From positions 570,001 to 602,000 of the forward strand of contig NZ_CP006932.1 in assembly GCF_000582535.1 (NCBI RefSeq): 32,000 bases of DNA, given 5' to 3'. Below, piece by piece: positions 2,332 through 31,078 of this stretch (within the stretch, counting starts at the first letter, position 1; the number at the start of each line of letters is the position of its first letter). The notes under the pieces are model-generated. The model made no database searches and was not told the DNA's origin. It saw nothing but the letters and a program-made list of their open reading frames with translations. Both the position numbers and the translations under genes were made by a program. The stretch is from Candidatus Saccharimonadota bacterium (lineage in GTDB: Bacteria > Bacillota_I > Bacilli_A > Mycoplasmatales > Hepatoplasmataceae).

Positions 2332-4248
2332 TTAATCATCATTATCTGGATTAGAATAATTAAAATTAAAAATCATATCAATTTTATTATTATAATAATT
2401 TCAAAAATGAACTCCTTTTTTTAATAATTTTAAAATTTCTTGTTTTTCATATTCAAAAACATTTTGATTAAAAATTTTTATATCTTCTGTTTTAGAAATT
2501 TTTAGATATATAAAATTTTTTTTTGAATTTAGAATTTCAAATAAGTTAGAAAAATAATTAAAATAATATATTCCTTTTTTATGAAATTCAAAAGCAATTG
2601 ATTTAATTGCATAGAAATTAGGCATAATTAATTTTAAAGAAGTATAATTAAATCCTTTTAAAGCTTCATTTTCTAATTCTTTTCCAGAATTAGAAATAGA
2701 ATTTGATTCATTTTTTATAGATTTATGATTTAAAAAAGTATCAATTTCATTTAGCGCAGAACTAGCAGCAAGTCCTGCTCATGCCCCGGCCCAAATTCCA
2801 TCTGTAAAAAAAGTTAATAAAGCACCCATTCCTAATCCAATTGTTGGAACTAAATAATCACCTTTACCATTTAAAGTAGAATTTTGTTTATATTTTAAAT
2901 ATTGATCTGTATTTTTTCATAATTGAAAATCTCTATTAATTTCAAGTCAATATCTTTTATCTTCAATTGAAGATAATAATTTTAAATTAATAGTTCAAGA
3001 AAAAGGACTAAAACTATAAAAATAATTTGCAATAATATTATCTTTTTTTAATTTTGGTAAATCTTTTTGAGAAAAAGATAATCCACTACCAAAATTTTCA
3101 TTTTGACCAGATATTTCAAATTGCTTAAAAGGATAAAAATTTAATATTTCTTCATCATTGTAATCTCAATTATCTCCAATATTTTTATTATTTTCAGAAT
3201 AATTAATTATAGAATCTGAATCCATAATTTTTAATTGTCCTATAATTTGTTTTTTATCCATATTATCATCATCATTTTTAAAGTTTTTTAATACTATTCC
3301 AAGAGCTTTACCACTATTTACATCTTCTACGAAACCTACATCTTCATTATTGAAAACCAATCCGCCATAAATATCAGATCATTCTCCAATATTTCCTAAA
3401 GGATAATTATCGACAACCGTAATATTTAATATTTCATTATCTGGTAAATTTCTAGCTCACTCATAAGATATTTTTCCAGATATTTCTGCAATTAAATTAC
3501 CTAATAAATCAAATATTTTCATTTTACTACCAATACTTGTAATAGGACTAAAAATTACATTATAAACCTTATCAATTTGTTGAATAGTATCATTTTCATT
3601 TCTTTTGCTTTTTTTGAAATGTAAAATATCTCCTGATTCTAAATTTTCAATATATTCTTTATTAATAAATATTAATAATCATTTTTGAATACCAAAACCG
3701 TCAGAAATATTTTGGCTTTGAGTAGAATTTAAAATATCATTGAAAAAATATTTTTCAATATCAAAATTATCAGATGGTTGATCATTTTGTAAAATTGAAT
3801 CATATAATAATTCATTATCAGAATTAAATTGTTTTTTAAAATTTATATGACATCTTTCAACTGAAAAATTTGTAAAAATATCAATTAATTTTGATAAATT
3901 ATAAGACTGTAATCAATTAATTTCTAATTCTAATTCTAATTCATTATCACTTATATAATTAATTTTAATTATATTTCAATAAGTTAAATTTTCTTGCAAT
4001 AAATTTTTTTTATTGAAAAAAGGATAATTTTTAACCTGAATTAAATCAATAATTTCAGAATTATTAAAAAAATAATCAAAATTAATTTCAGAATTATTAA
4101 TAATTAATTTAAAACTATTCCATTTCAAATCACTAATTAAAGTATCTGTAATTTGAAATGAATTTAAAGATTTTAGATAATTAGATATCCTCATTCTAAT
4201 TACCCTATTTTTTTGAATTTTTGTATTTTGAAATAATAAAATTTCCAT
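2332..4248 (-). CDS. hypothetical 638-aa protein with a glycine-zipper-like hydrophobic hairpin
   Basis: ORF-track pieces 3976..4248, 3166..3360 and 2401..2625 share one frame; I translated most of the gaps by hand (3601-3978 and 2623-3168) and found only TGA, no TAA/TAG; TAA stop at 2332-2334. Residues encoded at 2752-2850 read VPTIGLGMGALLTFFTDGIWAGAWAGLAASSAL, a local GC-rich patch. No enzymatic motif recognised. Confidence 0.7.
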
Positions 4249-4285
4249 CTAAATCTCCTAATTATTTTTAATTTAAAAAATAATA

Positions 4286-4305
4286 TTTAAATTATATAAT
4301 TTAAA
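4286..4305. promoter_or_regulatory. 20-bp perfect palindrome TTTAAATTATATAATTTAAA with back-to-back TATAAT boxes in the divergent intergenic region
   Basis: The sequence equals its own reverse complement; TATAAT at 4295-4300 (+) and its mirror at 4291-4296 (-); sits between the divergent starts at 4248 and 4369. Confidence 0.35.
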
Positions 4306-4368
4306 AAACAAACAATAAATTTATAAAAATAAGAATTAAAAAATAATTAAGAGAAGAAAATAAAAGAA

Positions 4369-6099
4369 ATGGAAAAAATAAAAGATTTTATTATACCTAA
4401 GGGTTATTCTATAGATTTAATTGTAAAAGAAGATGATCACGAATTAATTAATGCAGGAAAAATATTTATAAATGAATTAGAAAAAGAATATGAGAAATAT
4501 AAAGAAAATTTAAATAGAGAATATAAAAATATAGAAAAATATTTAAACAATAATTCAGTTTATTTTTCTAATGAAAAAATAGATAAAAAATCTCCCTTAA
4601 CAATTATCGATGCTCCTTGAGGAAGTGGTAAAACTTTTTTTATTGAATCATTAGCAAAACATATTATTGATAATAATATAAAAACAAATATTTTTAAAAA
4701 TATAATAATTTTAGATTCTTGAAAATATTCAAATTCTAAAAATATACCAGATGAAATAATATCTGAATTATTTTATATTCTTGCTATAAAATATGGAACT
4801 AAAGAAAATAATTTAAAAGAAAAACTTAAAAAATTTGGAAGACTTTTTTTCAACGCAACTGTTCTTTCATGAGCAAATAATTTTGGAAAATTGGATCTTG
4901 AAAAAATTAAACCAAAAGAAGAAAAGGAAATAAAAAATCTTTTATTAGATATATCAAACATTATTGAACCCACACTAATTGTATTTGATAACATTGAAAG
5001 AATTGGAAAATATTCTTGAGAAATACTTAAAGCAATTTTTAAAATATCTCAAATTGATAATTTTTGTTTTATTTTACCAATGAATACTAAAAAATTAAAA
5101 GAAAATGAATATGATGTTGATAACGAATATCCTATAGAAAAATATATCGATATTCCTTTTTTTAAATTTAAACAAGATTATTTATCATTTTTAAAAAAAT
5201 TTGGATTTAAAAACGAAGAAGCAAATTCAATTAATAAAATTTTAAATAAGGAAATAGAAGGACAAAAATTATCAATTAGAGAAGTAGAACAAAGATTTAA
5301 TAAAGAAAATATTAAAGAAATAGAAAATAAGTATGAAAAAATAAAAAAAATAGTAAATAAAATCTGAGGTTCAGTCGAGGAAGCAAAAAAATATTTATAT
5401 AATGATTTAGAAGAATTTTATTTAAAAATCATTGAATTAAAAAACAACTATGACGAATTCAAAAAAATAATTATAAAAAAATATTCAATTAAATATAGTA
5501 ATAATTATGAAAATGAAACAAATAATCTTAATTTATTAGTTGAAAAATTTTATAAATATGAATGAAGTTTTGATTATAAAGATTGATTTAATGATTTTAA
5601 TGAAGTATTAAAAGAATTAAAAGATTATGAAAAAAGAGATAAAAATAAAATTGAAAAATATGAAAAGGATATAAAAAATAAGAAAATTCAAATAGAAAAG
5701 ATCAAGGAAAACATATCTAATTTAATAAAATTAAACAAAGAAGAAGAACAAAAAGATTTAGAATTAATAAATTATGTAGAAATTGAAAATTTTAAAAATG
5801 CAATTAATAAGCATAATAAGGACATTTTCAATCTTAATAAAGAAATAAGAAATGATTCAATAAATATTGAAAATATCAAGAAAAAACTAATAAATTTAAA
5901 TTTTTATGATAATTTTAAAAATTTAAGTGATTTGTCCAAAAAATATAAAACTAATGAAAATAATTTATTTAAAAATGTTAACAAATATTTAATAAATATT
6001 TTTTTAGAGTTATTAGAAATAAAGGAAAATTTAAATTTATATGAAAAGAATATATTTATAAATAAAATATCAGAAAAAATTTTAAATATTAATTATTAG
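4369..6099 (+). CDS. KAP-family P-loop NTPase (576 aa) with a coiled-coil-like C-terminal half
   Basis: Walker A IIDAPWGSGKTFF (W is TGA 4618-4620) and Walker-B-like TLIVFDNIERIG match the KAP pattern GxWGxGK[ST] ... hhhhDDhDR; pieces 4369..4620 and 5080..5367 are in frame; hand translation is continuous to TAG 6097-6099. Confidence 0.8.
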
Positions 6100-7605: not shown

Positions 7606-8748
7606 ATGCAAACAAAAACAAATAACTATAAAAATGAATTACATTCAATTTGCACTTATTTAGCAATGTTTCCTCACAATATTCCGAATGAATATATAAA
7701 AAAATATACTAACAAAGGAGATACTGTATATGATCCCTTCTCTGGAAGAGGAACAACAATATTAGAATCATTACTTTTAGAAAGAAAAGCAATAGGAAAT
7801 GATTTAGCTCCTTTAGCTTATGTTTTAACAAAATCAAAAACAATTAATTATAGTTTAGATAAAATAATAAAAAGAGTAAATAAATTAAAAAATGAATATA
7901 TAAAATGAAGTAATATTAATAAAATAGATTTAGAACAAAAAGATTTTAAGGATGTTAAATATTTTTATAGTAAGTATAATTTAAATCAATTATTTTTCTT
8001 AAGAGAAAAAATAGGTAAAAATTATAGAAAATTAGATCAAATTGATAATTTTATTTTAGCAATTGCTTTAGGTTTAATGCACGGACAAATTAGAAAGGAT
8101 AATTCAACAATTTATTTTTCAATATCTATGCCCAATGGATATTCAATGTCTCCTAATTATGTAAAAAATTATAAAAATAAATATAATTTAATTCTTCCTA
8201 AAACTGATATTTTTGAGCAAATAATTAATAGAATAATAGTAAAACTTAAAAATAATAAAATAAATAATCTTAAATTTAAATCTAAAATATTTAATGAAGA
8301 TGCTTTAAAATCAAGTGAATTTATAAAAAACAAAAAACCAAAATTAATATTTACATCTCCTCCATATTTAAATGCAGTTAATTATGTAGAACAAAATTGA
8401 TTAAGATATTGATTATTAGGATTTAATAAAGAAGAAAATAAAAAAATAAAACTTGATGATAAACATAATAAAGAAAATTACAAAAATTTTTTAAAAAAAT
8501 TTTTAATTGAAATGAAAAAAATATTGGATCCTAACGGAACAATGATAATTGTAATTGGAGATTTAGAAAATAAAAAAATTCAAATTGATAAAATAATGAG
8601 AGAAATAATTTTGGATATAAAAAATTTAAAATTATTGGAAAGAATGAAAAAGGAAAAAAATAATTTAAAATTAAGTAGACAAATGGGAAAAGCAAAAGTA
8701 GGCAAATTAATAAATTATGATTGATATTTTATAATAGAAAGAATATAA
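7606..8748 (+). CDS. DNA methyltransferase, amino-MTase type (N6-adenine or N4-cytosine), alpha motif order
   Basis: Motif I VYDPFSGRGTT at about aa 40-50 and motif IV TSPPY at about aa 250; pieces 7606..7908, 8077..8400 and 8512..8724 are in one frame; TAA at 8746-8748. Confidence 0.85.
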
Positions 8749-10928: not shown

Positions 10929-11060
10929 TAATTAAAGAGATATCTGATAAAACAAAAAAATTACTAGTATTAAATAGAGAAACAGAAGCTAATTTAGATT
11001 AACTTATTAAAGGTATTCAATCATAAATAATAAAATCTAATTTTGATAATGAACTTATAA
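10929..11060 (+). pseudogene. short decayed internal fragment of fba (matches about 921-1050 of the intact gene)
   Basis: Hand alignment: ATAATTAAAGAGATATCTGATAAAACAAAAAAATTACTAGTATTA...CTAATTTTGATAATGAACTT versus fba TTAATTAAAGAGATATATGATAAAACAAAAAAACCACTAGTATTA...CTAATTTTGATAGCGAACTT; lies exactly between the two cassettes and overlaps the endonuclease stop codon. Confidence 0.7.
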
Positions 11061-12530
11061 AATTTTTTTATATCCGTACTTATTTTCAATAATTTCTTCA
11101 AGAAAATCTGAAATATCTGAACCTAAATTTTTTAGAGCAATTTTATTTATATCTGAAAAAGAAGCTAATTTATCTTTATTGGATAAACATTCTTTAGAAC
11201 AATATTGTGCTAAAATATTAGATGTTAAAGTGACAATTTTATATTTTTCAATATCTAAAAAATTAGAATTTGAAAATTTAGGAGAAATAACTAAACAATA
11301 TTTAGAATTATTTTTTTCAATATGTCTTTGTATTCGTGTTGATTGCAAATTATTATAAGATTTTCTGCTTTTTGCTTCAATATTAATTTTATTAACTTGA
11401 TCATTAAAATCTCTAAAAATAAAAATTAAATCAGTATCGCCTGATCCACTTATAATTTCAGTAGATATTTCTTCTCTAAATAATTTAAAAATTGGTTTTA
11501 AAGAATTTTCAAATTCTTTACCATCTAAAGAACCATATTTTGATTTTTCAGTCATATTATTTATTAAAGAAATTATTTCAATTTTTTCATTATATTCCGG
11601 AAATACTATTGCTAAATATTTTAATAATTCATTTTCATATAATTTTAATTTAAAATCTTCTAATCCAAAAGTATTTTTAGGGGAAATAGGTTCATTAAAT
11701 AAAGAATACTTACTTAATAATTCATGAGATATTTCTTTAAGATTTTTATTTAATTCAATATATCCTGAATAACTATCAATTTTATTATTTCTATAAGTAT
11801 TTGTTGATCCATGTTTAAACTTAAAAAAATTACCACTATTATGATATTTATCACCTTTTAAATTAATTACTCCAAATTGAGAAAATATTTTTAAAAAAAA
11901 ATATTTTGATTCATGCAAACAGTTAGCAAATAAATGATTGTAATCTTTTATTTGCTTAAATTTTTCTAATTTTTTTTCAAATGGTAATTTTCTAAAATCT
12001 AATATATCATTAACCAATTTTTCATAAGTTATCTTATTTATTTTTTTAATAAAAGGTAAAAATCATATAAACTCATCAATAAAAATTTTATATTCCAAAG
12101 AATCATTTAACATTAATTTAATAATTAATCGTCCAACAAATATTGAAAAATGTTCATTAACTTTACTATATGGTGCTGGAAATTGAATAGAAAATAAATT
12201 AACTAACATATTTTTTCTTATAAAATTTTCATCTTCATTTTTCTTGTTTAAAATATTTCAAGTTGTCTGAGTAGGAATAAAAAAATTGCTATTATTTTTT
12301 TTATAACCAAACATATAAAAAAACATTTGACTCAATCTAATTCCAATAGTATTCTCTGAACCATTTTCACTCCGACCTTTATAAATATTTTTTTCTTTTA
12401 AATCATATTTTAAATATTTTTTATTCAAAACGTTATTATTTTCTTTAATTGATTTTAAAAAAAGTACTATTTGCTTTTCTGAACTTATATTCTTTTGAAA
12501 AACTCATCTATCTTTAAATTTTCTTTCCAT
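11055..12530 (-). CDS. putative type II restriction endonuclease (491 aa) with a PD-(D/E)xK-like core
   Basis: ORF-track piece 11055..12017 extends in frame through 3 TGA codons to ATG 12528-12530 (hand translation: MERKFKDRWVFQKNISSEKQ...); candidate catalytic signature SGSGDTDLIFIF-x12-INIEAKSRK; immediately downstream of two C5-MTases on the same strand. Confidence 0.6.
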
Positions 12531-12550
12531 TTTATAAAAATAAATTAAAT

Positions 12551-13606
12551 TTATTTTTTAATTCCTTTAATAATTTCTTTTAAAAATTTAGGAGGAATTG
12601 CTTCTCCTATAATATTTCTAATAAAAGTATCTGTACATCAATTTGGTAAATCTAAATCTGGAGGTAGTGAACTAATTATAAATAATTCTCTTAATGTTAA
12701 AACACGAGCATCAGAATATGTACCATCTGAAAGTAATCGACCAGGATGTACATTATTATGACCTCCTATATTACCCGAATTCATTGTTCTTGCTGGAGAA
12801 GGTTTATTTCAATGCATTCTTTTATAAGTATTATGAAATCCTTTAATTGCTTCCCCGTTAATTTTTTTGGGATAATAAAAATCGTTTTTTAAAGCAGACT
12901 TACCAGTTGAAGTATGCTTCATAGCTAATATATCTCTATCATTATGTTTTTTTGCATAATGTCACTTAATATTTGATGATTCACCAGATTCTAGACTTGG
13001 CAAAAATCCTATTGCTTCTTTAAGATTTATTTCTTTTGATTCACTATGATTAAATCAATTAAGATTTTTTTTTCACATTTTTATAAATGCTCTTGATCTG
13101 TTTTGTGAAACGCCATAATTACAAGAATTTAAAATAAATTTTTTTATATTATATATATCTCCAAATTCCTGAATTAAAATGCTAAATATTGTATAAAAAT
13201 TATTATTATAAGGAAACAAAAAATTTAAAAATTTTGGAACATTTTCTATAATTATATAGTCAAATTTATTATTTTTTATAATTTCAATTACATAAAAAAT
13301 TAAATAATTTCTTTCATCATTTTCATAATCTTTTTTGCCCAAAGTACTCATTCCTTGACAAGGAGGAGTAGCAATTAAAAATTTGCAATTATTATTTTTT
13401 ATCTCAAAATTTATTTGATCTAATATTTCTTTTTTAGTAATATCGCCAATAATCATTTTTGTTTTTGGATAAAAAAAAGTATACAATTTAGCTCTTGAGA
13501 AAATTAATTCATTCGCTATTTTAATATCTATATTAACATCTTTTAAATACATCTCTCCTATACCAGCACCAGAAAACAAAGAAATACCATTTATCTTATT
13601 TGTCAT
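12551..13606 (-). CDS. DNA (cytosine-5)-methyltransferase, copy 1 (351 aa)
   Basis: Motif [40 protein letters not shown], then after TGA read-through [24 protein letters not shown] and motif X GEAIPP; TAA at 12551-12553. Confidence 0.9.
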
Positions 13607-14678
13607 TATATTTTATCCCTTTTAAAATTTTATTTATTAATAATGGAGGAACAGATTCTCCTATCATATTTCGTATCTGAATATCAGAAACAAATTTTGG
13701 GACATTTAAATTGGGATCTAAACTACTTAAAATAAATAGTTCTCTTAAAGTTAAAACACGTGCATCAGAGTATGTGCCATCTGAAAGTAATCGGCCAGGA
13801 TGAACATTACTTTGAGATGAAATACAATCATTTCTCATAGTAATAGTTGGAGAAGGTTTATTCCAATTAATTCTTTTATATGTGGCCATATAACCTTTTA
13901 ATTTTTCTCCTGTTTTTTTATTTTTAGGATAATAAAATTTGTTATCAAAAGCAGATTTTCCAGTAGGAGTATGTTTCATAATTTCAATATGAGATGCTAT
14001 ATGATTCCGAGCATTGTGATTTTTAATGTTTGATTTTTGTCCGGATTCCAAACTAGGAAGATTAGATATAGAATCTCATACTGTTATTATTTTTTCTGAT
14101 TTAGGATCAATTCATCGAAATTTTTTTTTTCACATTCTTATTATTGCTCTTTCTCTATGCTGAGGAACACCAAAATTTTTTGCATTAAATATATCAAATT
14201 CAATATTGTATTCCTTTTTATATTTATTAATAATTATTTCTTTAATTCCTAATAATTCATTATTTATAATGAATTTTATCTTAAAAAATCTAGAAACATT
14301 TTCTATCAAAACAAAGGAAGGTTTTAATTTATCAATTATTTCAAAAGTATCAAATATTAAATAATTTCTCTTATCTGCGATCATCTGATCATTTGACTTA
14401 TTTTTCCCTATTAAACTTATTCCTTGACAAGGAGGAGTGGCAAATATAAAATCAATTTTCTTTTTAATTGATTCATTAATAATTTTATTTTTAATATTTT
14501 CATCTGTTATATCCCCACATATTGTTTTGGTATTTGGATGTCAATATTCATGCACTTTATTTCTTATTGGAATTAATTCATTCGACAAAATAATTTTTAC
14601 TTTTGTATTTTTAAAGCCAAACTCAGCTATTCCAGCACCAGAAAACAATGATAAGGCATTAATTTTAACTAAATTCAT
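13596..14678 (-). CDS. DNA (cytosine-5)-methyltransferase, copy 2 (360 aa)
   Basis: ATG 14676-14678; motif [65 protein letters not shown], motif X GESVPP; pieces 14130..14384 and 13596..14051 are in frame; 11-nt overlap with the start of copy 1. Confidence 0.9.
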
Positions 14679-14713
14679 TGAGTTTATTCCTATTTAAATA
14701 AAAAAAATATTTA

Positions 14714-14767
14714 AATTTAATGTTTAAATTATATCTAATAATTATTTCTAATTTAATGTTTAAATTA
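14714..14767 (-). promoter_or_regulatory. two copies of an 18-bp element AATTTAATGTTTAAATTA (each a 7-3-7 inverted repeat) bracketing a candidate promoter of the R-M operon
   Basis: Identical copies at 14714-14731 and 14750-14767; on the minus strand, TTAAAT (14751-14756), a 17-nt spacer, then TATAAT (14728-14733), 50 nt upstream of the MTase ATG. Confidence 0.4.
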
Positions 14768-14799
14768 AAAAAATAATTACATTCTATTTAGACTTATTT

Positions 14800-15320
14800 A
14801 GATATATTTCAACTTATATACAATTAATATATTAATATTTACAAAAAAGAGATATATTATATGATCTTTTCTTCGGAAAAGAAATAACATTTTTGGAATA
14901 ATATTATTAAAAATAGAAGTTTATGGAAATTATTTATCTTCATCGATTCATTTATTAATTAAATCAAAAAAAATATTAATAATTTTATTTTAGCTATTTC
15001 ATTAGAATTAATTAATGGAAAAGTAAGAAAAATGAATTATCACTTTATTTTTCTGTTCCTATAGCTAATGGATATTAAACATCTCCGAATTATGTTAAAA
15101 AATTAACTTAACTTTTAATTTTTCGATTTATTTAAAGTTTGTTAATTATATAAAACAAAACTGAATAAGATATTTATTATTAAAATTCAACAATAAAGAA
15201 AATAAAAATATAAAACCGAATAATAAACATAGAACAGAAAATTATAAAATATTTCTAAAAAATTTTTGATTAAAAAGAAAAAAATGAATATTTTATACTT
15301 AAAGAAAATAGAGGAATATT
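14800..15320 (+). pseudogene. heavily decayed, internally deleted paralogue of the 7606-8748 DNA methyltransferase
   Basis: Colinear nucleotide matches to the motif I region (TATGATCTTTTCTTCGGAAAAGAAATAACA vs TATGATCCCTTCTCTGGAAGAGGAACAACA), the middle (AATTTTATTTTAGC..; ..AATGGATATT.AA..TCTCC.AATTATGT.AAAAAATTA) and the 3' part (..AAAAATTTTT.ATT.AAA.GAAAAAAAT.); many stops and frameshifts; boundaries approximate. Confidence 0.65.
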
Positions 15321-15583
15321 ATCTTTAAAATTACTTTAAAAATAATAATTTTAAATAAAATTTATGATATTTTAAATTAATTTAATAAGTAATTTTAATA
15401 TTAAATCTAAAATAAATTCATTATAAAAACAATTTTGTTAAAATTACATTTTTCTTTAATCTATAGATATCTTAAATTATTTATATTTAAATTTACAATA
15501 TTTAATTATAATTTATAAATTAATAATTAAATTTTAATTTTCTAAAATATTAATAATATTTTATTTTATTAGATATTAAATTA

Positions 15584-16195
15584 TTATAGTAAATCTAAAG
15601 TTTCTTTAATAGATTCAAAATAAATTGATAAAGTTTCTTTTTGATTTAAATAATTATTTTCAAAATTACTACATTTTTTATTTAAAAATACTTCTCTTAA
15701 CTTATTTCAATCATTACCCTTAATTTCTTTTATTTTATTATTAGAATTTTTAACTAATTCTCATCTTATATTATTAGATTCTTTCCCACGCAAAATTTCT
15801 TTCATGTTTTCTTTATTTGTTCTTATTAAAGCAATATCAAAATGTTTTCTATTATTTTGATCTCTAGAAGAAATTGTAATAACAGATGTTGATAATTTAA
15901 CATTATATTTATATCCTAGATATTTCTTAAATAATTTTTGTACAAATAATTTAAGTTCTGATGTATCAATTTTATTAAATATTGGTGAATCTAAAAGTAA
16001 TTGATAATCAACATCATAAATTCCATTTTTTCTTTGAACAACAAGATTTCTTCTTGCTGATCCTACAATTGCATGATTAAAAGATTTTCCATATTTTGCT
16101 TTAATTTCTTCTTTAATTTTAGGAATTGTATCTTCTAATTCAATTTTATATTCTTTAATTTCTTTTTTACTAACATATCTACATTTCTCATTCAT
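15584..16195 (-). CDS. Pol-beta-superfamily nucleotidyltransferase (203 aa; MNT/SMODS-like)
   Basis: Signature IVGSARRNLVVQRKNGIYDVDYQLLL (hG[GS]-x(n)-DhDh) plus a downstream HFDIALIR (third acidic residue); ORF-track piece 15761..16195 continues through 2 TGA codons to TAA 15584-15586 (translated codon by codon). Confidence 0.6.
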
Positions 16196-16246
16196 AATTA
16201 ATTAATTTAATTCCCCTTTATTTTTAATAATTATAATAATATTATA

Positions 16247-16840
16247 ATGAATCAAATTATTGAAAGAAAAATAAAATTTTTAAAACAAGAATTCTCAAAA
16301 AATAATTATGTATTATTAAAAGATGATATAAAAGATTTAAAAATTCAATTAGAAAGAAAACCTGTACAATTATACAATTTAGCAATAAAATTTTTATTAA
16401 AAAATAATGAGAAAATAAATTATGAAAATATTTCTAAAATCATAATTATTGATATAAGAATACGAGACAATCTTAAAAAAATAATAACTTCCTTAGAAGA
16501 ATATATAAGGGTAAAATATATAGATTTTAAAAAAATAGAATTTAATAATAATTTAATTAAAAAAATTTATACAGAAAATTTAGCAAAAATGATCCAAGAA
16601 TTAAAGGTAGATGAATACAACATAATAAGAGAAATAAGAAATAAAGTAAATCATATTGTTTACCCAATAATATTTGAAGAATTTAAAAATATTTTTAATA
16701 ATTTAATTAAAATAAGAAATTTAGATTTTATTAATAAAAATACTTTTGATAAATATCTAAGATCAATTTTAAATACTAATTACAATATAAATATTAATTT
16801 TATAAATAATTCTTTTAAAAAATTAAAAAATTATATTTAA
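16247..16840 (+). CDS. HEPN-domain protein (197 aa; AbiD/AbiF (Abi_2)-like)
   Basis: R-x4-H motif in IIREIRNKVNHIVYP within a predicted all-helical protein; divergent from the nucleotidyltransferase with a 51-nt gap. Confidence 0.55.
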   Translation: MNQIIERKIKFLKQEFSKNNYVLLKDDIKDLKIQLERKPVQLYNLAIKFLLKNNEKINYENISKIIIIDIRIRDNLKKIITSLEEYIRVKYIDFKKIEFNNNLIKKIYTENLAKMIQELKVDEYNIIREIRNKVNHIVYPIIFEEFKNIFNNLIKIRNLDFINKNTFDKYLRSILNTNYNININFINNSFKKLKNYI

Positions 16841-18742: not shown

Positions 18743-19066
18743 ATGGAAAATGATATTTTTTCTAAAATTGAAAAAAAAGCATTATGAAAAAAACAATTTG
18801 GTACTAAATTTACAGGATATGATGTATTTGGCAGATTTGTAAGTCAATGTTGCTCAGATACTAAATGTTGTTCTGCTTCAACTCTTGTTCTTCCTGAAAT
18901 TTATGGAGGTAAAGTTAGTATTGAAAATGGAATTATTTTACACCCCCTTTCAATTAAAGAAAAAGGTGATAAATTATATGGAATTGCAAATAAAAAATTT
19001 TTTCGAATTAAAAAAAATAAAGATGGAACAGCAACAATACTTGTAAAAAATAAAAAAGAAGAATAA
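18743..19066 (+). CDS. hypothetical 107-aa Cys-cluster protein (possible degenerate HNH-like fold)
   Basis: AGAGG RBS; MENDIFSKIEKKALWKKQFG...; CCSDTKCC followed by LVLPEIYGGKVSIENGIILHPLSIKEKGDK, which resembles the HNH layout (C..C / [DH]..P...GG.....N...L......K) but lacks the catalytic His; terminator follows. Confidence 0.45.
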
Positions 19067-19195: not shown

Positions 19196-19444
19196 ATGAA
19201 AATAAGTTTTATTTCCGCAAAAAAACAATCTGAAAATAATTGAATAAAAAATGAATTAAGTAATGTAAATAGTAAATTAATTAATCTTGATAATAAAGTA
19301 AATACCCTTGACAATAAAGTAAATGCACTCGATAATAAAGTTAATTCTTTAGAGAATAAAATTGAAACAAAGTTTACATTAATTGATCATGATTTAAATG
19401 AAATTAAAATAATTTTAAAAAGCTTGCAAAAAAACAGAAATTAA
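19196..19444 (+). CDS. small coiled-coil protein (82 aa) with heptad LDNKVNx repeats
   Basis: MKISFISAKKQSENNWIKNELSNVNSKLINLDNKVNTLDNKVNALDNKVNSLENKIETKFTLIDHDLNEIKIILKSLQKNRN; one TGA=Trp; paralogue at 20683-20877. Confidence 0.5.
19286..19369 (+). repeat. four tandem 21-nt units (imperfect) encoding the heptads LDNKVNT / LDNKVNA / LDNKVNS / LENKIET
   Basis: CTTGATAATAAAGTAAATACC / CTTGACAATAAAGTAAATGCA / CTCGATAATAAAGTTAATTCT / TTAGAGAATAAAATTGAAACA read directly from the sequence. Confidence 0.8.
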
Positions 19445-24849: not shown

Positions 24850-26727
24850 TTAATTTATATAATTCATTTCTAAATTTTCTTTATTATAATGTCTTATACC
24901 ATTTCATGTTTCTTTATTTCTATAATGTCAAAACGTTATTCCATATATAAAATCTTTATCTATTTTTAATTTTATTTGATCAGATAAATCTTTATCAACG
25001 ATATTAAACACCTCTGAAGCTTTTATAAAATTAAATCAATATCTAGAATTTAAATAATCTTTAATATCACTTAAAACAGCTAACTTATATCCATATTGAT
25101 AAAAATAATCTCATAACGATTTTTCTTCATTACGATTCAAACTATATTTATACAATCTCCAACTATATCCTTGTTCTTTATTAAAATAAGATGTAAATAA
25201 ATCTCCACTAATTTTAGAACTTCGATAAGGGATTATTTCATTTTCTAAATTAGTCAAATAATTCTTTGCATCAATTGTTAATTTTGCGCCTCCTTCTAAA
25301 GTTTTTTTAATACCGTCTCACATTATTTTTGGTTTTTTTTCAATATATCCAGTTGCTATTTCAGCCATTCCAATACTAATTTCAACAGAATCCAATAAAA
25401 ATCCTGATCTTGTCTTAGATTTAGATTTTTCAAATATTTCATAAAATGATTCTGTTCGCTGTGGATATTCATTATCAACAACAACAGAATATTGATTAGA
25501 ATTTCAATGTTTACTATAATCTGTGTAATCTTCATTAGAAAAATTTTCAAAATAAATATTACAATTATGAGTTCAAGGATTTAAAGAAAAAGTAAAATTT
25601 AATTTTATTTTTTGTTTTTCTTTATTTGAAATTCCTAATTGTAAAGGATCATATTCAATGGAACTATTACCATTTATTGTTTCAATAATATAATATTGAA
25701 AAGGATAAGCAAATAATTTATGTTCAAAATTAATATCTTTATCATTTAAATATGAACTAGGAAAATTAAAAAAATTATGATCTAAATTAATTTCATCAGT
25801 TGATCCCATACTGCTTTTTAAAATAAATTCTTTTATTAAAAATTTATTTTCTGTAATTGATAAATATTCATCATTTCCTTCAATTATTTTAATAACTAAA
25901 TTACCAACTTCATCTTTCGTTAATGAAAATTTATCTGGAAATATTGGTGATTCTAAAATATAAAATCCCGCAAATTCTTCTTTGCTTAAATCATTTTGAA
26001 AGGTTTTTTGTACACTAACTCCATTTATAATAGTGATGTTATTTTTTTCTTTATTAATTGGATATAAATAAAAATCATAATTAAGAGAAAAATTTCCAAT
26101 TTTTGCAATAGGATTACTAGATTTAAAAACTCCTATAATTCAAATAATTGAATTATTAATTACATCATTTCCATATTTAAAATTTGTAGATATTTCTTCT
26201 ACATTACTCAATTTTAAGGAAAAATCTTCTCGAACTTGTAAAGATTGATTATTTCTATCTAAATGTGCTCTTTCTATAAAAGTTTCACCTTTTAAAATCG
26301 TTGAAATTGGATAAGTAATATAAATATCTAAATTTAAAATTAAAATAAAATTATTATTATCTAAATTTTTAACTTCTGAAATTGAATAAAATTTAAATAA
26401 ATTATTTTCATAAATGATAATATTATTTAAATTTAAAATTAATTCTCTTTTTTTATTTATATCTTCTTCAAAAAAATAATCATTAATATTTATTTTTAAC
26501 TCGATATTTTCAATATTATTTATTCTAATATTTTTTTCAATTCAATAACCGTTTTCTAAATTTAAAAAATCAATTTGATCATCAAAAAGAACATAATTAA
26601 CAAATTCATTTCTCTTTGCAATTGATTCTTCTTTTGAATTTCCCGGAAAATCAATTACATTTTTATTTAGATTAGTATCATCAGATTCTCAATTAGTATT
26701 ATTTTTTGGTATTAAAATTTTTATCAT
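24850..26727 (-). CDS. phi29 gp9-like tail-knob (distal tube) protein paralogue, copy 2 (625 aa)
   Basis: ATG 26725-26727; piece 25573..25809 is in frame; motif blocks FKFYSISEV..LNLDIYITYPI..ETFIERAHL, LFAYPFQYYIIETINGN, WDYFYQYGYKL, YGITFWHY parallel phi29 gp9 as I recall it; TAA at 24850-24852. Confidence 0.6.
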
Positions 26728-26741
26728 TTTATTCTTCTTTC

Positions 26742-28991
26742 TTATTCTATTCTTACTCATTTAACAGTAAATAAACCAGCAGCTAAGTTATATTCTTGTG
26801 AAGAATTTTTTAAAGAATATGGAGCTAATGTATTTGCTTCATTATGAGATTTTCCAATTCTTATAATATATCCTTCTTGATCATATCCATCAATATATCC
26901 CACAACATCAGAACTATCATTTTTCCCTTCTGATTTATTTCTTGTTCCAACATAACAATTTGCTAATTTATGTTTATGATTTATAACTTCTTTATTTCAT
27001 ATTTGATTAGGTAAATTATTAACTGCTTGTACAGTAGCCATTCCTTCTTTAAATTCTTTATTATGTTCATGCAATCTTTTTCAAACACCTAAATATTTAT
27101 TATTTTTATTTGGATCATAAGTACTTAAAAATTCTTTAATTGTACCAATATGTTCATCTAATTGATTTATTTGTATAAAATCCATTTCTAAGTTTTCAAA
27201 ATCATAATTTTTGATTCCTTTTCAATCATTCTTATTACGATAATGTCAAAAAGTTATTCCATTTTTAAAATCTTCATTAATTATTAATTTTGTTTTTTTA
27301 GATAAATTTTTATCTACTAAATTAAATATTTTATCTATTTTTAAAAAATTAAATCAATACCTTGAATTTAAATATTTTTGAATATTTTCTAATTGATTTA
27401 ATTTATATCCATATTGATAAAAATAATCAAATAAATGCTTTCTCTCTAAATTATTTAAACTATACTTATTCAATTTTCAACTAAATCCTTTTGCATTATT
27501 TAAATATGAAGTTAGTAAATCACCATTAATTTTAGAAGTATTATTTTTTTCTAAATTATTAATATAATTTTGATGTTTTCTTTTTTCAATAATATTATTA
27601 GATATAGATGATCTTGAAGGAGATAAAAATTCTGAATATTGTTCTGCTTTAATGTCTTTTAATATATCTCCATAAGATAGTGTTCTTTTAGGATATTCAT
27701 TATCACTTACTGTGCAATATTGATTAATATTTCATGTTGCATCAATCTCAAATTTATTTAAGGCATTTTCAAAATAAATACTACTGCTATGAGTTCAAGG
27801 ATTTAAAGAAAAATTAAATCTTAAATAATCTTGATGATTTTCACTATTTCAAAGCAATTGTAATGGATCATATTTTATTGAATTAATTCCATTTGTTGTT
27901 TCAATTTTATAATACTCAAAGGGGTAGGCATATAATTTATGCTCGAATAAAATATTTTTTGGATTTTTATATGAATTTGCTTGTTCAAAAAAATTATGAA
28001 TATTTATTTTATCACTTCATCCCATTTCTTTATTTAAATCAAAATTTTTAATGAGCAATTTTCCATCTTCTAATTTAAAATTATTTGGATTTTTATTTGA
28101 CAAAGTAATAATGGTATTATTATTAACATCTTTTTCAATATTAATAGCATCAGGATATAATGGTGATTCTAAAATATAAAAACTAATAAATTCATCACTA
28201 TTTGTATCATTAAATAAAGTATTGTTTACATTTATATTATTTATTAAAATACTATTTCCATCTTCATTATTATAACTATCATAAAATTTAATTATTGGAT
28301 ATAAATAAAAATTAAAATTTAAAGGTAATGTACCAATTTTTGTTAATGTTTCTTTTTCTTCTTCTAAATTTATTTTCTCGATTCCAATGATTCAAATAAT
28401 TGAATTATTTTTATAATTATTATGATACTTAAAATTAGTTTCTACTTCTTCTACTTTGCTTAATTTAATATCAAAATCTTCTCTTATTTGAAGTTTACTT
28501 ACATCATTTCTTTTTAAATGTGCACGATCAATAAATGTTTCTCCACTTAAAATTGTTGAAATTGGATAAGTAAGATAAATATCTAGATTAATATTTGCAA
28601 TAAAATTATCATTATCTAAAATTTCAATTTTAGAAATTGCATAAAATTTAAATAAATTATTTTGATAGATAATAATATTATTTAAATTTAAAATTCGTTC
28701 TCTTTTTTTATCTATATCTTCTTCTAACAAATAATCATTTATATCTAATTTTATTTTACAATCAAAAATATCATTTATAATGATTTCTTTTTCTACTCAG
28801 TATCCATTTTCTAAATTTAAAAAATCAATTTGATCATCAAAAAGGACATAATTAACAAATTCATTTCGTTTTGCAATTGATTGTTCTTTTGTTTTTCCTG
28901 GAAAACTAATTACATGTTTTTGATCATAAGTATCTAAATTTTTATTAGTTGATCAGTTTGTATTATTTTTAGGAATTAAAATCTTTACCAT
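26742..28991 (-). CDS. phi29 gp9-like tail-knob protein paralogue, copy 1, fused in frame to a ~125-aa HxH C-terminal module (749 aa)
   Basis: ATG 28989-28991 after an AAGGAAAG RBS; piece 28392..28730 is in frame; colinear with copy 2 up to ..NGITFWHYRNKNDWKGIKNYDFENLE, then continues without a stop into MDFIQINQLDEHIGTIKEF...NHKHKLANCYVGTRNKSEG...FTVKWVRIE; TAA at 26742-26744. Confidence 0.6.
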
Positions 28992-29010
28992 CTATTCTTT
29001 CCTTTTTAAA

Positions 29011-29652
29011 CTATTCAACTCGAACTCATTTAATCGTAAGTAATCCTGCTGCAAAATTATTTTCTTCTGCAGAATTTGATAATGAATAAGGAATAAGATT
29101 TCCTACTTCATCATGTGATTGGCCAATTCTTATGATATTTCCTTCTGCATCATAACCATCAATAAAACCAACAACATCAGAATTATCATTAGTTCCTTCT
29201 GATTTATTTCTTGAACCAACATAGCGATCTGCTAATCTATGTGTATGTCCTTTTACTGCTCCATTTGTAACTATATTTGTCTGTCCTGAAATTGTTTGTA
29301 ATGTTGTCATTCCTTCAATAAAACTAGGATTATATTCATGTAATTTTTTTCAAACCCCTAAATATTTATCATTTAAATTTGGATCATAATCATTAATAAA
29401 TTCTTTAATTGTTCCTATTGCTTCATCAATTAAAGATATTTCATCTGATAATAATTGATATTTTTTTCCATCTTTTGAAAAATAAATATCTTTATGATTA
29501 TTTTTTACGAATTTTAAAAAATATTTTGTTTTATTATTTGATAATTTAAAAATATCATTTTTTTGATCACTATTTTCAATACTTTCTATTTCTCAACCTG
29601 AAAAATAAATTTTTATTTTGTTATTAATAATGTCTTCTGTTTTTTCTTCCAT
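29011..29652 (-). CDS. 213-aa protein carrying the stand-alone version of the HxH C-terminal module
   Basis: ATG 29650-29652; piece 29026..29310 is in frame; ...DEAIGTIKEFINDYDPNLNDKYLGVWKKLHEYN...GHTHRLADRYVGSRNKSEGTNDNSDVVGFIDGYDAEGNIIRIGQSHDE...LTIKWVRVE; TAG at 29011-29013. Confidence 0.6.
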
Positions 29653-29835: not shown

Positions 29836-29911
29836 TGGTGGTTCAGGACGGAATCGAACCGCCGACACAGGGAGCTTCAATCCCTTGCTCTACCGACTGA
29901 GCTACTGAACC
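29836..29911 (-). tRNA. trnF: tRNA-Phe (GAA)
   Basis: Hand-folded cloverleaf GGTTCAG..CTGAACC; anticodon loop TTGAAGC; TTCGATT T-loop; CCA encoded. Confidence 0.92.
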
Positions 29912-29990
29912 TGATTTTTTTATTATTCCGGTAGGATTAATTAAACCTACGTTTTTCTCAAAACGGCAAATAACGAAATAATTTATTTAA

Positions 29991-30066
29991 TGGCGGTCCT
30001 GACGGGATTTGAACCCGCGATCTCCTCTGTGACAGAGAGGCATGATGACCACTTCACTACAGGACC
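29991..30066 (-). tRNA. trnD: tRNA-Asp (GTC)
   Basis: Acceptor GGTCCTG/CAGGACC; anticodon loop CTGTCAC; CCA encoded. Confidence 0.92.
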
Positions 30067-30143
<77 letters not shown>

Positions 30144-30152
30144 ATAAATAAA

Positions 30153-30245
30153 TGGTGGAGATGGAGGGATTCGAACCCCCGCACGACTTTCGCCGTCTCT
30201 CGGTTTTCAAGACCGACCCCTTCAACCAGACTTGGGTACATCTCC
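30153..30245 (-). tRNA. trnS: tRNA-Ser (TGA)
   Basis: Anticodon loop CTTGAAA, long variable arm, 93 nt, CCA encoded. Confidence 0.9.
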
Positions 30246-30254
30246 ATTTATAAT

Positions 30255-30331
30255 TGGTGGTCCGTGCTGGACTTGAACCAGCGACCAACCGGTTATGAGC
30301 CGGTGGCTCTAACCAACTGAGCTAACGGACC
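30255..30331 (-). tRNA. tRNA with CAT anticodon, most likely tRNA-Ile2 (lysidine-modified)
   Basis: Clear cloverleaf, loop CTCATAA. The Ile2 assignment rests on its position in the conserved Met-Ile-Ser-fMet-Asp-Phe order and an Ile-like D-arm (TAGCTCAGTTGGTTAGAGC); the tRNA call itself is secure. Confidence 0.75.
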
Positions 30332-30336
30332 TTATT

Positions 30337-30413
30337 TGGTAGCGGAAGAGGGACTTGAACCCCCGACCCATTGAATATGAACCAATTGCTCTAACCAACT
30401 GAGCTATTCCGCC
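30337..30413 (-). tRNA. trnM: elongator tRNA-Met (CAT)
   Basis: Acceptor GGCGGAA/TTCCGCT; anticodon loop TTCATAT; CCA encoded; the Met versus Ile2 assignment is by cluster position. Confidence 0.8.
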
Positions 30414-30420
30414 AATAATA

Positions 30421-30496
30421 TGGTGGAGCGAACGAGACTCGAACTCGCGACCCCATGCGTGCAAGGCATGTGCTCTACCAACTGAGCTATCACCCC
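30421..30496 (-). tRNA. trnA: tRNA-Ala (TGC)
   Basis: G3:U70 identity pair (GGGGTGA/TCGCTCC); anticodon loop CTTGCAC. Confidence 0.92.
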
Positions 30497-30501
30497 ATAA
30501 A

Positions 30502-30578
30502 TGGTCGGAAAGACAAGACTTGAACTTGCGACCCCCGCGTCCCAAACGCGGTGCTCTGCCAAACTGAGCTACTTTCCG
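30502..30578 (-). tRNA. trnP: tRNA-Pro (TGG)
   Basis: Acceptor CGGAAAG/CTTTCCG; anticodon loop TTTGGGA. Confidence 0.92.
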
Positions 30579-30582
30579 ATAA

Positions 30583-30659
30583 TGGCGCGCCCGATAGGAG
30601 TCGAACCCACAACCCTCTGATCCGTAGTCAGATACTCTATCCAGTTGAGCTACAGGCGC
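30583..30659 (-). tRNA. trnR: tRNA-Arg (ACG)
   Basis: Acceptor GCGCCTG/CGGGCGC; anticodon loop CTACGGA. Confidence 0.92.
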
Positions 30660-30667
30660 ATTATTAA

Positions 30668-30752
30668 TGGTGCGGGTGAAGGGACTTGAACCCTTACGTC
30701 CGAAGACACTAGATCCTAAGTCTAGCGTGTCTGCCTATTCCACCACACCCGC
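30668..30752 (-). tRNA. trnL: tRNA-Leu (TAG)
   Basis: Anticodon loop CTTAGGA, long variable arm, 85 nt. Confidence 0.9.
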
Positions 30753-30755
30753 ACA

Positions 30756-30831
30756 TGGTGCCGTTGATAGGAATCGAACCTACGACCCACTGATTACAAG
30801 TCAGTTGCTCTGCCTGCTGAGCTACAACGGC
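30756..30831 (-). tRNA. trnT: tRNA-Thr (TGT)
   Basis: Acceptor GCCGTTG/CAACGGC; anticodon loop CTTGTAA. Confidence 0.92.
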
Positions 30832-30841
30832 TGATGATCTT

Positions 30842-30917
30842 TGGTGGGGCATATAGGACTTGAACCTATGACCTCCTGCTTGTAAGGCAGATGCTCTCCC
30901 AACTGAGCTAATACCCC
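30842..30917 (-). tRNA. trnV: tRNA-Val (TAC)
   Basis: Acceptor GGGGTAT/ATGCCCC; anticodon loop CTTACAA. Confidence 0.92.
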
Positions 30918-30924
30918 GAAAAAA

Positions 30925-31000
30925 TGGTGACCCATACGGGATTTGAACCCGTGCATGCTAGGATGAAAACCTAGTGTGTTAACCGCTTCACCAATGGGCC
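30925..31000 (-). tRNA. trnE: tRNA-Glu (TTC)
   Basis: Acceptor GGCCCAT/ATGGGTC; anticodon loop TTTTCAT. Confidence 0.92.
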
Positions 31001-31003
31001 TAA

Positions 31004-31078
31004 TGGCGCTCCGGAGAGGATTCGAACCTCCGACCAACTGGTTAACAGCCAGCTGCTCTACCACTGAGCTACCAGAGC
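31004..31078 (-). tRNA. trnN: tRNA-Asn (GTT)
   Basis: Acceptor GCTCTGG/CCGGAGC; anticodon loop CTGTTAA. Confidence 0.92.

Follow-up and report, generated by a model that had tools for sequence, protein, structure and literature searches.

AbiF-family proteins are intrinsically toxic HEPN ribonucleases (RNases), which a co-encoded upstream non-coding RNA (ncRNA) neutralizes by blocking the active site, and Cas13 has been proposed to descend from this family (PMC13064643, PMC12373285). HepT/MntA pairs, the type VII toxin-antitoxin systems, are defined by a PF01909 nucleotidyltransferase (NTase) with a GSX10DXD motif and a DUF86-type HEPN protein with an RX4HXY motif, the tyrosine of which is oligo-AMPylated by MntA, switching the effector off (PMC7641770). 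Here, we describe a two-gene locus in a 32,000-nucleotide stretch of DNA (the window; contig NZ_CP006932.1, positions 570,001 to 602,000) from the Mollicute Candidatus Hepatoplasma crinochetorum Av, in which the gene of a small NTase related to the cGAS/DncV-like nucleotidyltransferases (CD-NTases) is divergently transcribed from the gene of a HEPN protein related to the Abi_2 (AbiD/AbiF) family, the latter being followed by a gene for a KAP NTPase. Across the loci analyzed, the first two genes very likely constitute an obligate and mobile module that does not include KAP, and this module combines elements of HepT/MntA, AbiF and cyclic oligonucleotide-based antiphage signaling systems (CBASS).

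In the survey of HEPN domains by Anantharaman et al. (2013, PMC3710099), which also covers the KEN and Csm6 HEPN domains, Abi2/AbiF/AbiD and Swt1 make up one clade, RiboL-PSP-HEPN is a distant relative of AbiF/AbiD, and DUF4145 is placed in the HEPN Pfam clan. Besides, a review describes HalB, the NTase of the Hailong system, as making DNA that holds HalA off (PMC13276650).

Conserved active sites of the NTase and its HEPN partner

The two proteins were identified by exact match as X271_00550 and X271_00551. The window has a GC content of about 18%, and translation table 11 breaks its genes, shortening the NTase open reading frame (ORF) to 144 residues. Table 4, in which TGA encodes tryptophan, restores long ORFs across the window and confirms the coordinates given in an earlier sequence-only reading of this DNA, including the 51-nt spacer between the divergent genes and the KAP NTPase gene 46 nt downstream of the HEPN gene on the same strand. 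Two TGA codons lie in the NTase gene, W145 and W163, and genetic code 4 is confirmed by the first of them, since it encodes a tryptophan that is invariant in an alignment of 31 NTase family members.

The 203-residue NTase carries the GS-x14-DVD signature and later acidic site that had been noticed in the letters alone: G45-S46 are followed, after 14 residues, by D61-V62-D63 and then by D120 within HFD120IAL. Among 101 non-redundant sequences, G45 and S46 are conserved in 100% and D61, D63 and D120 in 99%, and the protein is, judged by its sequence, very probably an active enzyme. Searched as a single sequence against Pfam and NCBIfam, it was not recognized, and sequence-level searches of the PDB, with the single sequence or with family profiles, gave no useful match. 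The PADLOC model of the CBASS oligonucleotide cyclase (“Cyclase,” PDLC00795) matches its residues 23-148 with E = 8e-9, as it does 22 of the 31 family members, and five further PADLOC cyclase models are matched by others. Three of the 31 match the Pfam family DncV-like_NTFase, and the recurrent Pfam and PADLOC families listed for these members include neither the MNT (PF01909) nor the AbiEii models.

Structural comparison points to the same relatives. The AlphaFold2 model of the NTase has a pLDDT of 79, and all of its top 40 Foldseek matches in the PDB are CD-NTases, led by DwCdnB (E = 1.4e-7, TMq 0.59-0.63 over about 198 columns) and continuing with BfCdnB, CdnE, DncV, CdnG and CdnD, those to CdnB, CdnE and DncV having E values of 1e-7 to 1e-4. 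The window NTase belongs with the CD-NTases of CBASS, whose GS...[DE]x[DE]...[DE] catalytic site (SMODS family) it carries, and is not MNT-like. The matched CD-NTases have 270-390 residues, against about 200 here, roughly two thirds of their size, and the protein is therefore a strongly reduced CD-NTase in which the C-terminal lobe is much reduced.

The 197-residue partner encoded in the window had no match in Pfam, NCBIfam, PADLOC or the PDB, and profile searches of the PDB were equally fruitless. It contains, as first seen without database searches, the sequence RNKVNH (R131-N-K-V-N-H136), which conforms to the Rx4-6H motif of the HEPN superfamily with a polar residue after the arginine. Its family is tiny: a word-indexed search gave six clusters, and a profile search of 1.84 billion representatives gave 23 proteins. 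R131 and H136 are the sole invariant columns among 24 relatives whose identity falls as low as 21%, with R128, N132, E84, Y59 and Y139 nearly invariant, and among 97 non-redundant sequences the conservation reaches 100% for R131 and H136, 99% for N132 and E84, and 97% for E85 and Y59. Because catalytic residues are 99-100% conserved across both families, their motifs are not chance matches, and both proteins have the look of active enzymes.

The recurrent Pfam matches of the 24 relatives, which form a Mycoplasma-type clade, are weak and fall only in HEPN-clan families: DUF4145 in 13, Abi_2 in 10 (best E = 1.6e-3) and HEPN_Swt1 in five (best E = 5e-5), with further weak matches to RiboL-PSP-HEPN, Apea-HEPN and, in one member, NTase_sub_bind. 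In the Bacillota clade, a more mainstream branch of this family that stands beside NTase homologs, Abi_2 is matched by all 15 partners (best E = 4.2e-6) and PADLOC AbiD by five of them (best E = 1.6e-3). The two branches are homologous according to hhalign (98.8%, E = 6e-17) and share a [RK]-Y-D-K-x-L-R ... E-E-x-L-R block followed by L-R-N-x3-H. An alignment of the partner profile with a single Abi_2 protein by hhalign was uninformative, and jackhmmer started from the fetched loci recovered only the two seed Abi_2 sequences, so that it yielded no independent Abi_2 profile. The partner is best described as a divergent Abi_2 (AbiD/AbiF)-type HEPN protein with predicted RNase activity. The PADLOC, Foldseek and Pfam evidence taken together thus favors the SMODS/CD-NTase and Abi_2 assignments that the sequence-only reading had proposed as alternatives.

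Compared with AbiF/AbiD proteins (Abi_2, PF07751/COG4823), the partner shares the [FY]-D-[KR]-x-[LI]-R ... E-E block and the subsequent R-N-x3-H, and is likewise found in defense islands and on a phage, but it is smaller, with about 200-260 residues against about 340. A long form of the partner, of 605 residues (minus strand, 4146-5963), occurs in loci L003, L004 and L012, with a C-terminal extension of about 400 residues that contains a second motif, RNKLIH; in L011, the N-terminal domain of this form is cut off at 182 residues. A second HEPN domain in the extension was considered and rejected, since only the bare RNKLIH aligns (hhalign probability 0.4%) and Pfam and PADLOC gave no match.

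These assignments bear directly on the relation to HepT/MntA. In both systems, an Rx4H HEPN RNase is coupled with an NTase of the Pol-beta superfamily, neutralization that depends on the NTase is the logic that we favor here as well, and in the Mycoplasma-clade partners a nearly invariant tyrosine, Y139, stands three residues past the catalytic histidine, as would suit a HEPN-MNT pair. The NTase here, however, is CD-NTase-like rather than a PF01909 MNT, has GSX14DXD instead of GSX10DXD, and matches only CD-NTases in its fold; the HEPN protein is Abi_2-like rather than of the DUF86 type; MntA and HepT are much smaller than the two proteins here; and the HEPN gene usually comes first, which is a further difference. 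Y139 is replaced in the Bacillota clade, where the motif reads RX4HH[NS] instead of RX4H-x2-Y, which leaves the module without a conserved RX4HXY tyrosine. The locus is not a HepT/MntA system because both the defining families and the defining motifs differ; membership is largely refuted, and we consider it highly unlikely. The suggestion that the pair is a non-classical HEPN-MNT variant holds insofar as an NTase and a HEPN protein are indeed paired outside HEPN-MNT, with other motifs and families, and does not hold for the KAP component attached to it.

The same matches weigh on a reading in which the NTase would be the toxin, modifying tRNA in the manner of AbiEii or MenT, and the HEPN protein its antidote, or in which the two would act jointly, one cleaving RNA and the other tailing or repairing it. 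NTase toxins of the AbiEii/MenT type, which modify tRNA, do exist, and both active sites are conserved here, but the NTase matches CD-NTases and not the DUF1814/AbiEii family, and a simple antidote would have no need of the perfect RNase-type Rx4H site that is retained in the partner. This arrangement appears very improbable to us.

An obligate gene pair and its KAP neighbor

The two genes are adjacent at about 99 loci in Mollicutes, gut Bacillota and one phage. About 71 of these have the partner followed by the NTase on one strand, mostly overlapping, about 15 have the NTase followed by the partner, 12 are divergent and one is convergent. The association survives four gene arrangements, which argues for a functional coupling independent of co-transcription. 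Pairwise divergences of the NTase and its partner are correlated with r = 0.85 over 62 pairs, and none of 500 permutations exceeded 0.13. When all neighbors were clustered, no third recurrent family appeared, the next being GmrSD (seven loci) and small HNH proteins (five loci).

Two scans trace the distribution of the module. With the NTase profile, one genome per species, 22 loci were found at GC contents from 24 to 49%, in Mycoplasma, Metamycoplasmataceae, Anaeroplasmataceae, Acholeplasmataceae and Izemoplasmatales as well as in unclassified Bacilli, Eubacteriales, Clostridia, Christensenellaceae and Borkfalkiaceae. Where the loci come from standard-code Bacillota, the partner gene directly precedes that of the NTase on the same strand and in most cases overlaps it; the exceptions are one locus with the reverse order and L023, which has a convergent Abi_2-like gene. 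In a metagenome scan with the partner, the NTase was adjacent on the same strand in 67 of 76 loci (53 downstream, 14 upstream), and in the remaining nine the contig ends within 200 nt on the side in question. Among the loci examined, neither gene was clearly seen as an orphan. L094 is the only locus in which partner and NTase, on the same strand, stand about 1.5 kb apart, possibly through an insertion between them.

The pair lies in defense islands with restriction-modification (R-M), GmrSD, Abi_2 and SduA-type genes, and an overlapping copy is borne by a complete 57-kb tailed-phage genome from human feces (phage NatCom_17901, Caudoviricetes; L034, PV036423.1, 51514-52783), where it stands a few genes upstream of anaerobic ribonucleotide reductase genes. 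Scans of plasmids and IMG/VR did not find the pair. The module is rare but widely scattered.

The divergent arrangement, which the sequence-only reading took to be distinctive, is present in the window and proves to be a peculiarity of the Mycoplasma/Hepatoplasma clade, to which all 12 divergent loci belong, their spacers measuring 20-72 nt; outside that clade, both genes point the same way and mostly overlap. The 51-nt spacer of the window must contain or overlap the promoters of both genes, and a promoter scan was uninformative at 18% GC, with 70 sites against 54 expected. In L005, L007, L009 and L010, the divergent spacers of 20-22 nt are near-perfect palindromes around TATA (ATTTAAAT-TATA-ATTTAAAT), so that the promoter of each gene must overlap the 5' coding region of the other; the palindromes may serve as an operator common to both genes or as a bidirectional -10 element from which leaderless transcripts start. 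At divergent loci, the promoter of the partner must be located within the NTase gene, so that the 5' leader of the partner would run antisense to the 5' end of that gene.

The earlier reading had proposed a three-component system, with the NTase as modifier or signal generator, the HEPN protein as effector and the KAP NTPase as sensor or switch. The KAP gene does follow the HEPN gene closely on the same strand, no terminator was found between them in the window, so that read-through may occur in Hepatoplasma, and the order HEPN then KAP is kept in the sister Hepatoplasma strain (L001). In that strain, however, a gene for a 95-residue HNH endonuclease (4947-5234; Pfam E = 1e-4) is inserted between the two, and a survey with the KAP profile and Pfam lists found no KAP at the remaining loci, about 97 in number, so that outside Hepatoplasma the pair occurs only without it. 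The window itself contains a KAP paralog (4369..6099, 576 residues, 72% identical over about 1.4 kb of DNA) that stands without an adjoining NTase/HEPN pair. With KAP next to the pair in Hepatoplasma only, the three-component idea fails, and we regard it as hardly credible; the KAP NTPase is an unrelated neighbor within the defense island and not a component of the module.

Both KAP genes of the window have weak PADLOC mads_8 matches, and the paralog precedes an unknown ORF of 435 residues, a type II methyltransferase and a 706-residue ORF with a weak PD-Lambda-5_A match. Downstream of the KAP gene next to the pair, a 107-residue ORF (18743-19066) is a degenerate relative of the 95-residue HNH endonuclease of L001, and small HNH-like ORFs are again found close to the pair in L005, L007 and L009.

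How the NTase may control the HEPN protein

We tentatively favor, short of calling it probable, a negative mode of control in which the NTase keeps the HEPN toxin in check. The module would then be of the abortive-infection or toxin-antitoxin type, the AbiD/AbiF-like HEPN RNase acting as the toxic effector under the control of a miniature (about 200-residue) CD-NTase-type enzyme. The NTase would be constitutively active and the RNase held off, either by a short nucleotide or oligonucleotide product of the NTase that fills the HEPN active-site cleft or through nucleotidylation of the HEPN protein by the NTase. The neutralizing activity would be halted or consumed upon phage infection or when the module is lost, freeing the RNase and leading to cell arrest. 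We infer the RNase activity, its toxicity, the direction of control (off, not on), what the NTase makes and what acts as the trigger.

Negative control is favored by several circumstances: AbiF-family proteins are toxic unless neutralized, no abiF RNA was detected, the NTase is the only constant companion of the HEPN gene, the compact partner has no recognizable ligand-sensor domain, and MntA and HalB provide precedents. In the window and 40 loci, the abiF motif RF03085 had no match, whether the gathering score or E ≤ 5-10 was applied, no conserved sequence was found upstream of the partner beyond close relatives, and at several loci the preceding ORF runs up to or into the partner gene, leaving no room for an upstream RNA. 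For this lack of an RNA, the module is not a canonical AbiF type III toxin-antitoxin system, and it differs from AbiF/AbiD systems further in that the partner is always paired with an NTase, a pairing not reported for AbiD/AbiF (PMC3710099, PMC13064643, PMC12373285).

A precedent closer in logic than in parts is offered by the guard systems Hailong (HalB NTase and HalA channel) and Panoptes (mCpol and a 2TM effector), in which the constitutive nucleotide signal of a small NTase likewise keeps a toxic effector off. The likeness is one of logic only, the effectors being a membrane channel and a 2TM protein there and a soluble RNase-type protein here.

The main competing explanation is positive signaling as in CBASS or OAS-RNase L, in which infection would trigger the NTase and its cyclic or linear oligonucleotide would bind the HEPN protein, switching the RNase on and causing abortive infection. 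We judge it somewhat unlikely, leaving the remaining weight to other or unknown modes. HEPN RNases activated by oligoadenylates are well known, as in Csm6/Csx1 and the KEN domain of RNase L, the NTase matches CBASS cyclase profiles and CD-NTase structures only, the module is located in defense islands and on a phage, and adjacent or overlapping pairs of cyclase and effector genes fit the observed architecture. Type I CBASS in particular is resembled in the cyclase-profile NTase, similar to CdnB, CdnE, DncV, CdnG and CdnD, and in the two-gene operon within defense islands, but Cap2/Cap3-type accessory genes are absent here. Against positive signaling stands the small size of the NTase, at about two thirds of that of its matches and with the C-terminal lobe much reduced.

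The partner, too, weighs against positive signaling. It is a compact Abi_2 protein throughout, with no ligand-sensor domain recognizable by Pfam or PADLOC, SAVED, CARF and STING among them, and its matches in these databases include no CBASS effector or sensor domain, only HEPN-clan families. We know of no CBASS effector class that consists of a HEPN protein without a nucleotide-sensor domain, and the module is not a recognized CBASS type because its effector belongs to none of those classes. OAS-RNase L and Cas10-Csm6/Csx1 similarly couple an NTase or polymerase functionally to a HEPN-superfamily RNase, but the RNases of those systems are activated by the signal through ligand-binding domains (ankyrin/pseudokinase and CARF, respectively), none of which was seen here. 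Moreover, the characterized relative AbiF is constitutively toxic unless neutralized (PMC13064643, PMC12373285).

Several points nevertheless weigh against an NTase that holds an AbiF-like toxin off. Characterized CD-NTases make activating second messengers rather than inhibitors, and to our knowledge no CD-NTase modifies a protein. Y139, the counterpart of the HepT RX4HXY tyrosine, was considered as an AMPylation site and rejected, being conserved in the Mycoplasma clade only; Y59 is a speculative alternative. With no orphan asymmetry between NTase and HEPN genes, nothing marks the HEPN gene as the toxin, and toxin-antitoxin pairs are not usually transcribed divergently, as the genes are in the clade of the window. 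An Rfam abiF match is likewise missing beside the bona fide Abi_2 genes of L004 and L011, which leaves the negative result for the abiF RNA without a positive control. The identification of the partner is affected as well: the Abi_2 score shown for partners, 18.4 bits, is under the curated Pfam cut-off of 25.6 bits, and the confident, all-alpha AlphaFold2 model of the partner (pLDDT 90) gave no fold match at all in Foldseek (best E = 1.5 in the PDB and 0.84 in BFVD), even though the PDB holds many HEPN structures.

Within negative control, a more specific form, which we consider unlikely, would have an untemplated short oligonucleotide made by the NTase act as the antitoxin, replacing the abiF ncRNA in the active-site cleft of an AbiF-like HEPN dimer. 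Removal of the oligonucleotide by phage nucleases, or through depletion of nucleotides, would then set the RNase free.

Genomic setting and significance

The features of the locus are collected in Table 1. A type II R-M cluster occupies 11055-14678 of the window, which places the NTase/HEPN pair in a defense island. It is separated from the pair by an apparently empty region (14679-15583). At 14975-15285, this region contains what is left of an N4/N6 type II DNA methyltransferase gene, now decayed and frameshifted, whose intact paralog stands at 7606-8748 (76-80% DNA identity; tblastn E = 6e-15).

Table 1. Coordinates of the NTase/HEPN pair and of neighboring features (positions in the window)
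Feature	Position	Strand	Evidence
Minimal CD-NTase-like nucleotidyltransferase X271_00550, 203 aa	15584..16195	-	table-4 ORF, PADLOC, Foldseek, conservation
NTase catalytic residues G45-S46	16058-16063	-	
NTase catalytic residues D61-V62-D63	16007-16015	-	
NTase catalytic residue D120	15836-15838	-	
AT-rich spacer between the two divergent start codons, 51 nt	16196..16246	.	sequence
Divergent Abi_2 (AbiD/AbiF)-like HEPN protein X271_00551, 197 aa	16247..16840	+	table-4 ORF, family matches
HEPN partner Y59	16421-16423	+	
HEPN partner conserved upstream block D69 / R73 / E84-E85	16451-16501	+	
HEPN partner Rx4H motif R131-N132...H136	16637-16654	+	
KAP NTPase, 560 aa	16887..18569	+	Pfam PF07693, E = 5.8e-12
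Restriction endonuclease (REase)	11055-12530		PADLOC REase_II, E = 4e-39
C5-cytosine methyltransferase, first of two tandem overlapping paralogs (67% DNA identity)	12551-13606		
C5-cytosine methyltransferase, second paralog	13596-14678		

Elsewhere in the window, an 82-residue ORF (19196-19444) contains a heptad-like NKVN(T/A/S)LD repeat and weakly matches the Mycoplasma coiled-coil family DUF16, and its version in the sister strain has 93 residues and one more repeat. Two tandem paralogous large ORFs of 636 and 749 residues (24856-27163 and 27174-29431) share about 72% DNA identity, and in the region of the fructose-bisphosphate aldolase gene, 666-1187 and 1552-2064 are partial copies with 86% identity. 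A cluster of 14 tRNA genes (29839-31078, minus strand) accounts for a local GC spike to 52%.

We found no description of a CD-NTase/SMODS gene paired with a HEPN/Abi gene in the open-access literature searched, although a prior description elsewhere is possible, and the two-gene NTase and HEPN defense or toxin-antitoxin module is apparently undescribed. If it functions as inferred, it would be an immune or toxin-antitoxin module of only two genes, compact and easy to test, that joins two intensively studied protein families, the CD-NTases, of the cGAS/CBASS lineage, and the AbiF-type HEPN RNases, from which Cas13 is proposed to derive. Recoding would not be needed for direct tests of the versions from Bacillota and the phage, which follow the standard genetic code. 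The NTase is among the smallest CD-NTase-like enzymes and could therefore reveal the minimal requirements for the chemistry of the fold, while the module could tell whether the place of an RNA antitoxin can be taken by a nucleotide product. An antitoxin synthesized by the NTase, if true, would make the module a hybrid of type III toxin-antitoxin systems, whose antitoxin is an RNA, and “guard” systems built on an NTase, Hailong among them, and would add a new branch point to the AbiF-to-Cas13 lineage of RNA-bound HEPN nucleases. Besides gut Bacillota and a phage, the module is present in the genome-reduced Mollicutes, in which few defense systems have been recognized.

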